Shown here: in pieces, positions 3,564-53,445 of the stretch
How the letters are laid out: every line of letters starts with the position of its first letter
Position numbering within the stretch: the stretch's first letter is position 1
DNA from: an uncultured Clostridia bacterium
Lineage (GTDB): Bacteria; Bacillota; Clostridia; TANB77; CAG-508
Reading direction: 5' to 3'
DNA length: 64,000 nt
Assembly (NCBI GenBank): GCA_947630545.1
Contig: CANRHX010000002.1
Span: 11,493-75,492, forward strand
Translations under genes and position numbers: made by a program
Notes under the pieces: model-generated
The model's input: the letters and a program-made list of their open reading frames with translations, nothing else
Told to the model about the DNA's origin: nothing
Databases searched by the model: none

Positions 3564-3662
3564 TGTGTCAATGGTTCCGGGTTTGATTGACACATTTTGT
3601 GTCATTGGTTCCGGGTTTGGTTGACACATTTTGTGTCATCGGTTCCGGGTTTGATTGACACA
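3564..3662 (+). repeat. Tandem array of 3 units (period 34 bp) of the palindromic repeat TGTGTCA-NN-GGTTCCGGGTTT-NNN-TGACACA (locus A, forward orientation)
   Basis: Units start at 3564, 3598 and 3632. Each is 31 bp plus a TTT linker, with 7-9 bp terminal inverted repeats. Lies in the intergenic gap between the fabZ stop and the accC start. Confidence 0.95.
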
Positions 3663-3670
3663 AATTATTT

Positions 3671-4093
3671 TTATACAATTGCAAAAGTAAGTTCACCTTT
3701 TACAGCAACTTTTCCATCTACAGTTGCAATTGCTTCTCCTACTCCAATCGGTCCTTTTCTTTTTATTATTTTAACTTCAAGTTTCAACCTATCTCCAGGT
3801 ACAACTTGTTTTTTAAATTTAAGTTTATCGATTCCGCCAAATAATGCATTTCTTCCTTTATTTTCTTCTAATGATAGTATTGCAACTGCTCCAGTTTGAG
3901 CTAATGCTTCGACCATTAAAACTCCTGGCATTATTGGATTTCCTGGAAAATGTCCCTTAAAATAATATTCATCCTTACTTACATTTTTATATGCTACACA
4001 GCTTTCTCCAGGCACATATTCTTCTACTTCATCGATCATAAGAAATGGTTCTCTTTGTGGAATTATATTTTTTATTTCTTCTTTGTTTAACAT
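3671..4093 (-). CDS. fabZ: 3-hydroxyacyl-ACP dehydratase FabZ
   Basis: Hot-dog fold motif [12 protein letters not shown]; 140 aa; fab operon context. Confidence 0.92.
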
Positions 4094-4110
4094 TATACTT
4101 CTCCTAAAAA

Positions 4111-4139
4111 TTGACTTATTTACTAATTTATGCTATAAT
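4111..4139 (+). promoter_or_regulatory. Near-consensus sigma-A type promoter pointing antisense to the fab operon
   Basis: TTGACT (4111-4116), 17-nt spacer, TATAAT (4134-4139), read directly from the plus strand in the accB-fabZ intergenic gap. Confidence 0.5.
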
Positions 4140-4145
4140 AAATTA

Positions 4146-4310
4146 AGCGCAATCTCTATTTAAGAGATTGATTTACTATAGATGAGAGTGTTTTCCTTTT
4201 TATATAGATAAAATATGAAAGGGATACATGATTTTTACGGAAAATACTCTCACATTGTGGGAAGGCTTATACTTTTGAGTATATTGTTCTTCCCATTTTG
4301 TTTTTTATTT
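4146..4310 (+). ncRNA. Candidate small RNA (about 165 nt), unknown family
   Basis: Downstream of the promoter above there are three hairpins. First: CAATCTCT-ATTTA-AGAGATTG (4150-4170). Second, long-range: GAGAGTGTTTTCC (4185-4197) pairing with GGAAAATACTCTC (4239-4251). Third: GGGAAG...CTTCCC (4259-4294) followed by ATTTTGTTTTTTATTTT, which acts as a rho-independent terminator only on the plus strand. Confidence 0.35.
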
Positions 4311-4772
4311 TATCTTAAATAATGGCATTCCATATTCAACAACATCTTCATTATTTACGCATATTTCTACGATTTCTCCATCAAATTCAGATTCTATTTC
4401 ATTCATAAGTTTCATTGCTTCAATTATGCATAAAACCTGACCTTTTTTAACTTTATCTCCCACCTTTACAAATGGTTCTTTGTCAGGAGATGGACTATTA
4501 TAAAATGTTCCCACCATAGGTGATTTAACTATTTTATAATTTTCTTCTTGTTGTGAAACAACCAAACTATTTTCAGTATTCTTTTGTACAACAGGTACTG
4601 ACATTGGAGCACTTGCCTCTATTACTGTTTTAGATGAATCATTTAATATAACTTTTTTATCACTACTCTTTGTCATACTAATCTTTACTCCATCTGGGAA
4701 TTCAATTTCTAACGAGTCTAATTTTGACTCTCCCATATCATCCATCAACTTTTTAATTTGCTTGTAATCCAT
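4305..4772 (-). CDS. accB: Biotin carboxyl carrier protein
   Basis: C-terminal biotinyl domain with the [10 protein letters not shown] motif; between fabF and fabZ. Confidence 0.92.
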
Positions 4773-4774
4773 AC

Positions 4775-50709: not shown

Positions 50710-50912
50710 TTTTTCACCTTATCTCTTTCAATTGCATTATAGCATTTTCTTTAATTATTGTCTACATTATTTTTGCTACAATTCATAGTATAAAGGTCCA
50801 TATACAATATTTTTTTATAAAGACTTGCTTCTTTTTTAATTTTAGTGTAATATAATAGCATAAATTGAAAAATTGCAAAAAATATTTTAGAAAGGAGTTT
50901 TATTAATTTAAT

Positions 50913-51075
50913 CAGCGCCAGGACAGTTATGAATATCATTTCATTGAAAGATAAATAGCTGTTGACGAGGTCTAGAGTTATCGAAAAATTCGGCGGATGC
51001 TCTAGTGGCTTTAGCTTAAGTCATAGTATTAATGTAAAAAACAGTAGTGATACTGTAACAAATGTTAATACATTC
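50913..51075 (+). ncRNA. glmS_ribozyme: glmS glucosamine-6-phosphate-activated ribozyme
   Basis: Conserved core AGCGCCAGGAC ... GTTGACGAGGTCTAGAGTTATCGAAAAATTCGGCGGATGCTCTAG matches the Firmicutes glmS ribozyme core. Directly upstream of glmS. The 3' boundary is approximate. Confidence 0.85.
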
Positions 51076-51190
51076 AAGCTTTTATTTTGCATGCCTTCAA
51101 TTTACAGAAGGTTTTTTTATTTTAAACCTTCAAAAAATAAATTTTATAATTTGCCTTTTACATATTAGGCTTTTCAAGGAGGAAAAATAT

Positions 51191-53029
51191 ATGTGTGGAA
51201 TAGTTGGTTACATAGGAACAAAAAAAGCAACACCAATATTAATTAATGGATTATTGAGATTAGAATACAGAGGATATGATTCTGCTGGAATTTCTACAAT
51301 CGAAAAAGATGGATTATCTATTATGAAAGATAAAGGAAGGGTAAAAAATTTAAGCAATATACCTGGAATTGATGATTTAGAAGGAACAATTGGTATAGCT
51401 CATACAAGATGGGCTACTCATGGAAAACCATCAAAAGAAAACTCTCACCCACATATGGACAATAGTAAATCTTTTAGTGTTGTTCATAATGGAATAATTG
51501 AAAACTACAATGAATTAAGAAAATTTTTAGGAGATAATGGTTACACTTTTTACTCTGAAACAGATACTGAAGTTATACCAAATTTAATACATTATTATTA
51601 TTCAAAAGATAATAATAATGATGATGAAAAATTATTAAGAGCAGTTAGATCTGCAGTTTTAGATTTAAAAGGTAGCTTTGCAATCGAAGTAATTAGCAAA
51701 TTCGACAAAGATAATATGATAGTTGTAAGAAAAGACAGTCCTTTAGTTATAGGAACTTGTGAAGATGAAAATTACATCTCATCAGATATACCTGCAATTC
51801 TTTCATTTACTAGAGACTTCTATTTATTAAATGATTTAGAATTTGTAGTTTTATCTAGAAATAATGCAACATTTTATGATAAAGATTTAAATAAAATTGA
51901 AAAAGATACAAAAACAATAGAATGGAATGCATCTGCTGCTGAAAAAGACGGATATGAAGACTATATGCTTAAAGAAATTCATGAGCAACCTACTGCAATA
52001 AGAGAAACAATAGGCTCTAAATTATCAGAAGATGCTCCTATAGAATTTGATGAGTTAAATTTTAATAAAGAATATTTATCAAGTTTAAATAAAATATATA
52101 TTGTAGCTTGTGGTACTGCAATGCATGCAGGATTAGCAGGAAAAAATGCAATTGAAAAACTTTGTAAAATACCTACAGAAGTAGATATAGCATCAGAATT
52201 TAGATATAGAGACCCTATTATAGATGATAAGACTTTATGCATTTTCATATCTCAATCTGGTGAAACAGCTGATACAATTGCCGCTTTAAAACTTTCTAAG
52301 GAAAAAGGGGCAAAAACACTTGCTGTAACAAATGTTATAGGAAGTTCAATAACTAGAGAAGCAGATTATTCAATATATACTCATGCTGGTCCAGAAATTG
52401 CTGTTGCATCTACAAAAGCCTATACATCACAAGTTGTATTACTTAATGTTTTAGCACTATATTTTACACAGATTTTAGGTTGCGGTGATGCAAAATTAAA
52501 TGATTTGAAAAAAGATATTTTGGATTTACCTAGAAAAATTGAAGAAACTTTAAAAGTTTGTGAAAATATTGGTGAATTTGCAAAAGAAGTTTATCAAGAA
52601 CATGATGTATTCTTCTTAGGAAGAGGTATTGATGAAACAGTTGCTAAAGAAGGCTCTTTAAAATTAAAAGAAATATCATATATTCATTCAGAAAGCTATG
52701 CTGCTGGAGAGTTAAAACATGGACCTATTGCTTTAATTGAAGCTGGAATTACTGTTATAAGTATAATGACAGATAGTAAATTAGTTGAAAAAACTGTAAG
52801 TAATATTCAAGAAGTAATTACTCGTGGAGCAAAAACTTTAGTAATTACAAATCAAAAAGTTGATCAAAAAATGTTTGATAAAACTATTGTTATACCAGAT
52901 ACAAATCCATTCATCTCTCCTATTCTTTCAGTTGTACCTTTACAACTATTTGCTTATTATATTGCAAAAGAAAAAGGATTAGATGTTGATAAACCTAGAA
53001 ATTTAGCTAAATCAGTTACAGTTGAATAA
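51191..53029 (+). CDS. glmS: Glutamine--fructose-6-phosphate aminotransferase
   Basis: Starts MCGIVGYIG (N-terminal nucleophile Cys) behind AAGGAGG. Two SIS domains. Ends LAKSVTVE. The track ORF start at 51062 is a spurious upstream extension across the ribozyme. Confidence 0.95.
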   Translation: MCGIVGYIGTKKATPILINGLLRLEYRGYDSAGISTIEKDGLSIMKDKGRVKNLSNIPGIDDLEGTIGIAHTRWATHGKPSKENSHPHMDNSKSFSVVHNGIIENYNELRKFLGDNGYTFYSETDTEVIPNLIHYYYSKDNNNDDEKLLRAVRSAVLDLKGSFAIEVISKFDKDNMIVVRKDSPLVIGTCEDENYISSDIPAILSFTRDFYLLNDLEFVVLSRNNATFYDKDLNKIEKDTKTIEWNASAAEKDGYEDYMLKEIHEQPTAIRETIGSKLSEDAPIEFDELNFNKEYLSSLNKIYIVACGTAMHAGLAGKNAIEKLCKIPTEVDIASEFRYRDPIIDDKTLCIFISQSGETADTIAALKLSKEKGAKTLAVTNVIGSSITREADYSIYTHAGPEIAVASTKAYTSQVVLLNVLALYFTQILGCGDAKLNDLKKDILDLPRKIEETLKVCENIGEFAKEVYQEHDVFFLGRGIDETVAKEGSLKLKEISYIHSESYAAGELKHGPIALIEAGITVISIMTDSKLVEKTVSNIQEVITRGAKTLVITNQKVDQKMFDKTIVIPDTNPFISPILSVVPLQLFAYYIAKEKGLDVDKPRNLAKSVTVE

Positions 53030-53056
53030 AAAAAGTCCCCTAAAATGGGGATTTTT

Positions 53057-53333
53057 TCATCCTATTAAACACTTTATAATAATTATACAAATTGCTCCTG
53101 GAATACCAAGAATTCCGTACTAAAATACTAGTAAAAAAATTTAGTCCAATATGAAAATTGAATCCGCTGCCTATTAAATTTATTACATAGATTAATAATC
53201 CACCTAAAACAGAATTAACTACTAATTTTAAAACTTTTGTAATTGGTACAATAAATACTTTTCCAAAAATAAATAAAAAACATATACATGCTAAATAAGT
53301 AATAACATTTGAATCCATATTCTTCCTCCACAA
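53057..53333 (-). CDS. bofA: Pro-sigmaK processing inhibitor BofA; needs a +1 frame change at the in-frame CGG at 53115-53117
   Basis: TTA GTA CGG A ATT CTT GGT ATT CCA GGA: skipping the C gives SILV-G-ILGIPGAICIIIIKCLIG-stop, restoring the BofA G.LGIPG motif. The neighbouring yaaL matches the B. subtilis yaaL-bofA arrangement. Confidence 0.8.
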
Positions 53334-53380
53334 ATTGTTTAGTAAATGTGTATTCAGAATATGGACAAATATTCCAATTT

Positions 53381-53445
53381 TGTGTCAATCAAACCCGGAA
53401 CCAATGACACAAAATGTGTCATTGGTTCCGGGTTTGATTGACACA
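53381..53445. repeat. Two units of the palindromic repeat in inverted orientation, forming a 65-bp palindrome (locus E)
   Basis: 53381-53411 is the exact reverse complement of 53415-53445, with an AAA centre. Lies between the yaaL stop and the bofA start. Confidence 0.95.

Follow-up and report, generated by a model that had tools for sequence, protein, structure and literature searches.

What are the 31-bp palindromic units that stand in tandem in a 64-kb stretch of DNA (hereafter, the window) from an uncultured Clostridia bacterium of rabbit gut metagenomes, and how did they reach their sites? A preliminary description of this stretch had counted 15 units at five loci and had considered, among other readings, a replicating element akin to repetitive extragenic palindromic (REP) sequences or BIMEs. 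The arrays are a real, non-random and undescribed repeat family, and most likely they are small parasitic DNA hairpins copied round the genome by a domesticated IS200-like transposase of the REP-associated tyrosine transposase (RAYT) kind. The replicating-element idea is supported by two findings in relatives of this organism, namely empty sites at the positions of the arrays and a Y1 transposase gene flanked by units.

Repeat units and their insertion sites

A search with the pattern TGTGTCA-NN-GGTTCCGGGTTT-NNN-TGACACA, in which at most three mismatches were allowed, confirmed the 15 units in five arrays in the window and returned none in 100 dinucleotide-preserving shuffles of it; array B starts at 15790 and not, as given earlier, at 15791. 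The arrays are as follows.

Array A: 3564..3662, plus strand, three head-to-tail units of 31 bp with a TTT linker
Array B: 15790..15888, minus strand, three units
Array C: 25185..25317, plus strand, four units
Array D: 28289..28387, minus strand, three units
Locus E: 53381-53411 (minus strand), an AAA joint and 53415-53445 (plus strand), two identical units, inverted

Tandem Repeats Finder gave a period of 34 for loci A-D. The 12-mer core GGTTCCGGGTTT is unchanged in all 15 window units, and variation is confined to the NN that adjoins the left arm and the NNN that adjoins the right arm. The arms and core had been called invariant with exceptions in B and D only, and both exceptions proved correct: the terminal unit of array B carries the arm TGACTAA in place of TGACACA, and one unit of array D has A for G immediately 3' of the core. 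At locus E each unit is the exact reverse complement of the other, and the pair makes up a perfect palindrome of 65 bp (stem 31 bp), a REPIN-like doublet. Solo or degenerate units were found nowhere else in the window; a near-match at 14314-14325, lying inside a gene and without arms, was rejected as a chance match. A sixth array (F) of three units was found ~5 kb past the window, between asd and a femAB-like gene, on a same-species contig that reaches ~9 kb beyond the window, and some same-species contigs terminate within arrays. The window species has multi-unit arrays only, direct at five of the six loci and inverted at E alone. Adjacent units mostly differ at the variable positions, yet identical variants recur at other loci, and two pairs of arrays have the order of variants in common (AT-TT-TC in A and F, xT-TC-TT in C and D). 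As had been stated before, the arrays are not CRISPR, since a constant 3-nt linker joins the units and the repeats have no unique spacers; type III antitoxin arrays were rejected as well, the neighbours being housekeeping genes.

The window has ~27% G+C and is ~90% coding by a crude tiling of open reading frames (ORFs), 57 of the 67 tiled ORFs being on the minus strand. Array A occupies the fabZ-accC spacer, 8 nt past the fabZ stop codon and 16 nt ahead of the accC ATG; array B follows the stop codon of a udk-like gene (546 aa) and precedes the ribosome-binding site of a gene with an RNHCP domain; array D faces nth from the 3' end of the RNase R gene, and locus E has a BofA-like gene on one side and a 99-aa ORF on the other. 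The preliminary description held that all loci are intergenic. This is true of most array bases (468 of 495 are non-coding) and fails for array D, whose first unit contains 27 nt of the RNase R frame, namely its 3' end with the stop codon, and encodes ..EICVTGSGFN*. Array C had been placed inside a likely tig-clpP operon; it is not in an operon and lies between two signals:

clpP promoter: 25164..25192, minus strand, perfect TTGACA-17-TATAAT
tig terminator-like hairpin (TTGGGGCAAGTTATTTGTACCCAA and a T-run): 25322..25345, minus strand, read from the sequence and conserved in relatives

The array begins directly after the T-run of the tig hairpin, which is context and not a part of the repeat, and the arm of the unit at the clpP end (unit C1) serves as the -35 hexamer of clpP, where the relatives have a TTGACA of their own. 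A terminator scan of 24900-25500 called no terminator at locus C, the tig hairpin being likewise uncalled.

Comparison with relatives of the same gene order reveals how the arrays came to these sites. Three syntenic relatives, with tig 88-90% identical, are without arrays at B, C and D. At site B they read TAA-AAGGAGAAAAT-ATG, the empty site being 42 bp long in L003 and 11 bp in L004, and the window array falls precisely in the gap that separates the stop codon from the ribosome-binding site. At site C (empty in L003, L004, L006 and L059) the relatives have the tig terminator hairpin, ~40 nt and then TTGACA-16/17-TATAAT, and the window array replaces the middle part; in the more distant JAAWAX01 (tig 76% identical) the tig-clpP spacer is empty too. 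The RNase R protein, which ends ..VDFQIVKEEDIPNTI in relatives, ends ..VDFEICVTGSGFN in the window, as read from the first D unit. The arrays are insertions.

The copy number was estimated from public sequencing runs, only about six of which contain the repeat 31-mers. In one of them (X1) the word depth summed over the unit was ~2000-2600, compared with ~4-6.5 on the single-copy contigs of the organism; the ratio suggests a number of units on the order of 10^2 per genome, which is a rough estimate because two other runs give lower ratios. The exact unit had no match in 185,579 species genomes, JGI metagenomes and IMG/VR viral contigs, Rfam gave no match at gathering score across the whole window, and a paper-library search with the core sequence returned unrelated primers only. 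Neither blastn of the array against PLSDB plasmids nor a comparison of its translation (spurious ORFs) with the protein database produced a match. The earlier remark that the unit was not recognised as a described family thus agrees with the searches of Rfam, the literature and the genome collections.

A hairpin superfamily and its Y1 gene in relatives

A scan for two exact cores 16-30 nt apart showed that the geometry arm-NN-GGTTCCGGGTTT-NNN-arm' occurs in at least 12 low-GC Clostridia assemblies, with other arms. The assemblies and the arms are listed below (MAG, metagenome-assembled genome).

Assemblies: Clostridium sp. CAG:440, CAOKJE01, CANRXN01, CANTHA01, CANOYI01, CANEEJ01, CANPHV01, JAAWAX01, JAFRFO01 and three rabbit MAGs
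Arms ATTGCCA/TGGCAAT: Clostridium sp. CAG:440
Arms GTCCCCA/TGGGGAC: several assemblies
Arms CGGTCAA/TTGACCG: a goat-ileum MAG close to the window organism
Arms CTGCCA/TGGCA: rabbit MAGs

The arms differ from genome to genome and their complementarity is kept. Among 97 distinct units from 13 genomes, the 7-bp stem was paired in 88.8% of cells, compared with 69.7 ± 1.3 in shuffles and 20-48% in slid controls, and double changes were seen in six of the seven stem pairs; many units inherit the differences between genomes, so that the independent events come down to some five types of arm. No variation was seen in this set at the closing A-T pair or in the core, although the invariance of the core between genomes is partly a product of the scan, which demanded an exact core. 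The stem is of 7 bp, occasionally 8-9 bp, and the loop of 13-17 nt. This covariation indicates that the unit is a hairpin, the stem of which must only pair, while its 17-nt loop is constrained in sequence. The preliminary description had taken the lack of compensatory changes as an argument against a stem; the positions it considered lie outside the 7-bp stem, which does covary strongly across the 13 genomes, and the argument has to be abandoned.

Arrays of other species stand at non-orthologous sites, except those beside the transposase gene described below. Direct doublets were found in relatives in 44 cases, from a scan that selected for direct pairs. In Clostridium sp. CAG:440 they often occur as inverted pairs 150-280 bp apart (L026:7359-7591, L054:3070-3389, L075:783-1018), and at L026 the flanks outside the units are nearly identical too, which suggests larger composite elements. 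About half of the matches of the core-only scan were unrelated and were discarded, being simple (GGGTTTC/GGGTTCC)n heptamer arrays; long arrays of this sort are present in Bacteroidota, Kiritimatiellae, Acidobacteriota, Nitrospirota and a Streptomyces (L012, L022, L031, L036, L071, L084, L090 and others).

When ORFs at the relatives' loci were clustered, an ORF of 245-255 aa emerged as the recurrent neighbour of the units in seven genomes, in the conserved order gdpP-rplI-dnaB-[units]-ORF-[units in tilS]-ftsH. At these seven loci, all derived from the scan, the upstream units come directly after the dnaB stop codon, and the downstream units, oppositely oriented and bearing the genome's own arms, lie in frame within tilS after SGGPDS. 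One or two units are accommodated past this PP-loop motif, e.g. ..NRQLNPEPVAINCQTNPEPMAIFVAHVNH.. at L011:1659-1703, and likewise in L021, L027, L042, L098, L179, L180, L181 and L187. The ORF matches Pfam Y1_Tnp (E 5.7e-13), and its top NCBIfam model is the REP-associated tyrosine transposase (REP_Tyr_transpos, E ~1e-18, with a score of 67 bits that is under the curated cut-off of 80), the IS200 transposase model scoring only E 0.005. The HUH histidines H60 and H62, as well as Y120, N124 and P125 of the motif Y-I-H-x-N-P, are invariant in 63 homologues. An AlphaFold model of the relatives' protein (pLDDT 86) has as its top Foldseek match 4ER8_A (E 5.9e-7, TM 0.66), the E. coli RAYT bound to a REP hairpin, which ranks ahead of the IS608 and ISDra2 transposases. 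In the model, residues 180-244 form a helical C-terminal domain, for which Pfam HTH_3 and HTH_19 gave E values of 0.009-0.14, below cut-off.

At E <= 1e-20 the protein has 4021 homologues, most of which, among those listed, are on contigs of ~1 kb; two sets that were inspected end within units. Six loci were reached through the protein and not through the repeat, and are thus unbiased as to the repeat: intact units with a (G/T/C)GTTCCGGGTTT core were present in four of them, degenerate remnants only in one, and none in one.

An arms-only scan revealed a second repeat family, TGTGTCA-C-GGGGACGTATC-AGC-TGACACA, which has the arms and TTT linker of the window units and another loop core. It flanks, on both sides, a Y1 homologue of its own that is 28-31% identical. 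This family is abundant (loci L103-L175, e.g. L104:3296-5142, L106:1083-1143, L152:232-1422) and occurs as direct or inverted doublets in metagenome contigs of higher GC (Ga0256404, AUXO01, OCTW01).

Related systems and other features of the window

Published REPs carry a GTAG or GTGG tag 0-2 nt 5' of a hairpin, either one with a stem of 7-20 bp and a loop of 2-5 nt or one that is long and bulged (PMC6006769), and are mostly inverted doublets in Proteobacteria (PMC6006769, PMC3733652, PMC3116915). The repeats described here share with the REP/BIME and REPIN systems and their RAYTs, e.g. those of E. coli and Pseudomonas (PMC3116915, PMC5581495, PMC6006769), the character of short extragenic hairpins that are high in copy number and species-specific. 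In relatives there are also a low-copy, vertically inherited Y1/HUH gene flanked by repeats, a protein with the Y...NP tyrosine motif and the 4ER8 fold match, and in-frame insertions into genes. They differ in that the conserved part is the loop and not the stem or tag, in that the units are arranged head-to-tail with a fixed 3-nt linker (E alone being inverted), and in that the host is a low-GC Clostridium.

By length, motifs and its helical domain, the relatives' protein appears to resemble most TnpA-Y1 subclass 2.1, equivalent to Bertels Group 1 or TIRYTs, which has been reported in Clostridia (PMC6006769, PMC5581495, PMC3733652). Members of this subclass have about 238 aa and a C-terminal helix-turn-helix domain (PMC3733652, PMC6006769, PMC5581495), and the relatives' protein has ~240-255 aa, the motifs NH[AV]H and YSS and an extra C-terminal helical domain; its tyrosine motif is YIH[NK]NP, in contrast to the published YIELNP and Y[IV]HLNP. 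Subclass 2.1 was reported to be without REP-like sequences nearby, with occasional moderate families of terminal inverted repeats that show a GGGGWSAS motif (PMC6006769, PMC5581495, PMC3733652). The arms of some relatives (TGGGGACA/C) resemble this motif of the TIRtron flanking repeats, whereas the window arms TGTGTCA/TGACACA have no GGGG, and the flanking sequences here are abundant hairpin units with a conserved loop. With IS200/IS605 elements the system has in common the Y1 HUH fold and same-orientation hairpins at both ends of a block, like the left and right ends of IS608. The tyrosine motif, however, is Y...NP and not Y...Q, no tnpB is present, six arrays show no strand bias, and the gene in relatives looks single-copy and syntenic, not multicopy. 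The repeat family is best filed under the REP/RAYT (TIRYT-like) kind, and not as a new kind of system.

Two further likenesses were considered. The consensus uguGUCAACGGUAaCGG...GUUGACaca of the Bacillus-plasmid RNA (Rfam RF01691) is similar to the unit UGUGUCAAUGGUUCCGG...AUUGACACA over the stem and the first part of the loop, and this model matches the window at 25185-25224 with 25.9 bits, below its gathering score of 31; 26 nt of the model loop are missing, and relatives with other arms share the loop start only. MIRU of Mycobacterium and BOX of Streptococcus pneumoniae are short tandem units at many intergenic sites, often between co-transcribed genes. Neither is known to be related in sequence to the window units, and no cognate Y1 transposase is known for them.

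Apart from the arrays, the window carries a glmS ribozyme (Rfam RF00234, 98.9 bits) at 50903-51081 on the plus strand, upstream of glmS (51062-53029). On the minus strand, accA, the gene for the alpha carboxyltransferase of acetyl-CoA carboxylase, is split into overlapping ORFs of 134 and 146 aa (512-952 and 903-1307). The same split is found at L009:2295-3090 and L010:2320-3115, and, as three independent assemblies share it, it probably reflects a genuine frameshift rather than an error of sequencing. Between clpX and rplU (21053-22966, minus strand) the window encodes a 637-aa protein that combines Flg_new and leucine-rich repeat domains; in relatives a small bPH_2 gene takes this position. 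Three other tandem repeats of the window, 39 bp x 3.8 (39217-39366), 15 bp x 7.9 (7871-7989) and 30 bp x 3 (57320-57409), are apparently within reading frames or at their ends.

Proposed mechanism, competing explanations and significance

From these results, we regard it as likely that the arrays are REP-like, non-autonomous mobile DNA hairpins, a lineage-specific family that would work with a Y1 enzyme of the RAYT/TIRYT kind. The unit would be a 7-bp stem (TGTGTCA/TGACACA) closing a 17-nt loop, the centre of which, GGTTCCGGGTTT, is common to the superfamily. The window genome would encode such a Y1 enzyme, which would bind the hairpin in its folded single-stranded form, would take its sequence specificity from the conserved loop and would mobilise the arrays by cutting and rejoining single-stranded DNA. 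Blocks of at least two head-to-tail hairpins may behave as the two ends, left and right, of a miniature IS200/IS605 element and move as one; such movement would explain why only multi-unit arrays are seen and why the order of unit variants is common to different loci. The identity of C3 and C4 makes it probable that local duplication contributes further units.

A number of observations weigh against this proposal. The preliminary description had recommended a search for a RAYT or an IS200/IS605 TnpA gene, and while such a gene, flanked by units, was indeed found in relatives that carry the same loop core, none was found for the window genome: neither the window and the ~9 kb of same-species flanking sequence nor loci L001, L009 and L010 yielded a Y1 gene, and eight contigs with RAYT candidates (including P0153, P0148, P0163, P0144, P0214 and P0136) had other arms or no units, and TGTGTCA arms in no case. 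For this genome, the link with a transposase is drawn from the relatives. The 34-bp arrays were also absent from the 21 kb sampled in each of the three closest relatives, so that the presence of the family is patchy. An IS200/IS605-like mechanism predicts a bias in orientation, yet none with respect to the leading strand was seen in what is a very small sample (three arrays in one direction, three in the other and one mixed). Moreover, no GTAG or GTGG stands beside the window arms, the flanks of which are T- or A-runs, and the window stem has only 7 bp with a loop of 17 nt, in contrast to the small published loop. The RAYT score below the curated cut-off and the partly built-in invariance of the core belong on the same side.

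The best surviving alternative, which we nevertheless consider quite improbable, is that the arrays are cis-acting elements of the host kept by selection, either as RNA hairpins with a part in the termination, stabilisation or processing of transcripts or as arrays of sites for a DNA-binding protein, their spread being secondary. In its favour, all arrays are in the 10% non-coding share of the window, unit C1 supplies the perfect -35 box of clpP, whole arrays fold stably (z-scores -4.5 to -7.8), and the in-frame units of tilS persist in several genomes. Single units, on the other hand, fold weakly (-7 to -10.5 kcal/mol), and an intrinsic terminator was rejected, none having been called in the scan of 24900-25500 and the unit loop being of 17 nt, where such terminators have a loop of 3-8 nt in a G+C-rich hairpin followed by a U-tract. 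The sites are empty in close relatives of the same gene order, one array alters how a reading frame ends, the arms differ between species and the flanking genes are unrelated; among RNA-seq runs, none represents the species, the share of common words being at most 8%. Equivalent contexts, too, hold both orientations. The preliminary description had proposed a rule by which arrays after gene ends (B and D) and arrays inside operons (A and C) have opposite orientations. Array B, however, separates a stop codon from the ribosome-binding site of the next, co-directional gene, where the spacer in relatives is 11-42 bp; it is inside an operon as much as array A and still has the opposite orientation, which leaves the rule unsupported. 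The effects of the arrays on neighbouring genes look incidental: the clpP -35 box, the RNase R C-terminus and the hairpins in two operons are probably insertions tolerated by selection.

It is very improbable that the arrays are miniature inverted-repeat elements (MITEs) moved by a DDE transposase that reads the arms, with the Y1 gene as a bystander. In favour of this, the arms of a unit form an inverted repeat, locus B may show a 5-bp duplication (TAAAA), and one relative has another MITE-like insert in its tig-clpP spacer (L006:11335-11500, ~165 bp with inverted ends of ~25 bp) and a DDE_Tnp_1 gene ~3 kb away. Yet loci A, C, D, E and F show no consistent target duplication, an arm length of 7 bp is very small for terminal inverted repeats, and the Y1 gene is the recurrent neighbour in two independent repeat families. 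Scarcely credible are local tandem duplications that arose at each site by slippage, as in variable-number tandem repeats, without transposition: although C3 and C4 are identical and the unit number ranges from 2 to 4 between loci, one 31-bp unit is found at six loci with unrelated flanks, units side by side are mostly unlike at the variable positions and share their variants with units of other loci, and dispersed near-identical copies mean that slippage may alter the length of an array and cannot explain dispersal.

Within the preferred explanation of mobile hairpins served by a Y1 enzyme, there is a further, rather unlikely possibility, namely that the hairpin with its invariant TTCCGGGTTT loop and the domesticated, vertically inherited Y1 protein constitute a long-lived host system and not merely selfish DNA. 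The hairpin would then be the cognate site of this protein, which has a putative extra DNA-binding domain at its C-terminus and is encoded beside dnaB across a large clade of gut Clostridia. If this were true, the pair might act on single-stranded DNA at the replication fork or shape the genome, the loop would be conserved by function while stems drift and are homogenised within each genome, and RAYT subclass 2.1, described in the literature as without REPs, would have its cognate repeat.

REP/RAYT systems are known almost entirely from Proteobacteria, with a fixed grammar: the hairpin is tagged by GTAG, its stem is long and its loop is small. In a large and heavily sampled clade of uncultured animal-gut Clostridia, the grammar is another one, with a short species-specific stem, a large conserved loop and head-to-tail units, and it is tied to a RAYT branch of ~4000 homologues that resembles the subclass reported to be without REPs. 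These repeats provide examples of a repeat donating the -35 box of a promoter, rewriting the C-terminus of a protein and standing in frame in tilS. They also break short-read assemblies of these organisms, as same-species contigs and the inspected transposase contigs end within units. Finally, whether a Y1 enzyme reads the loop or the stem can be tested cleanly in this system.

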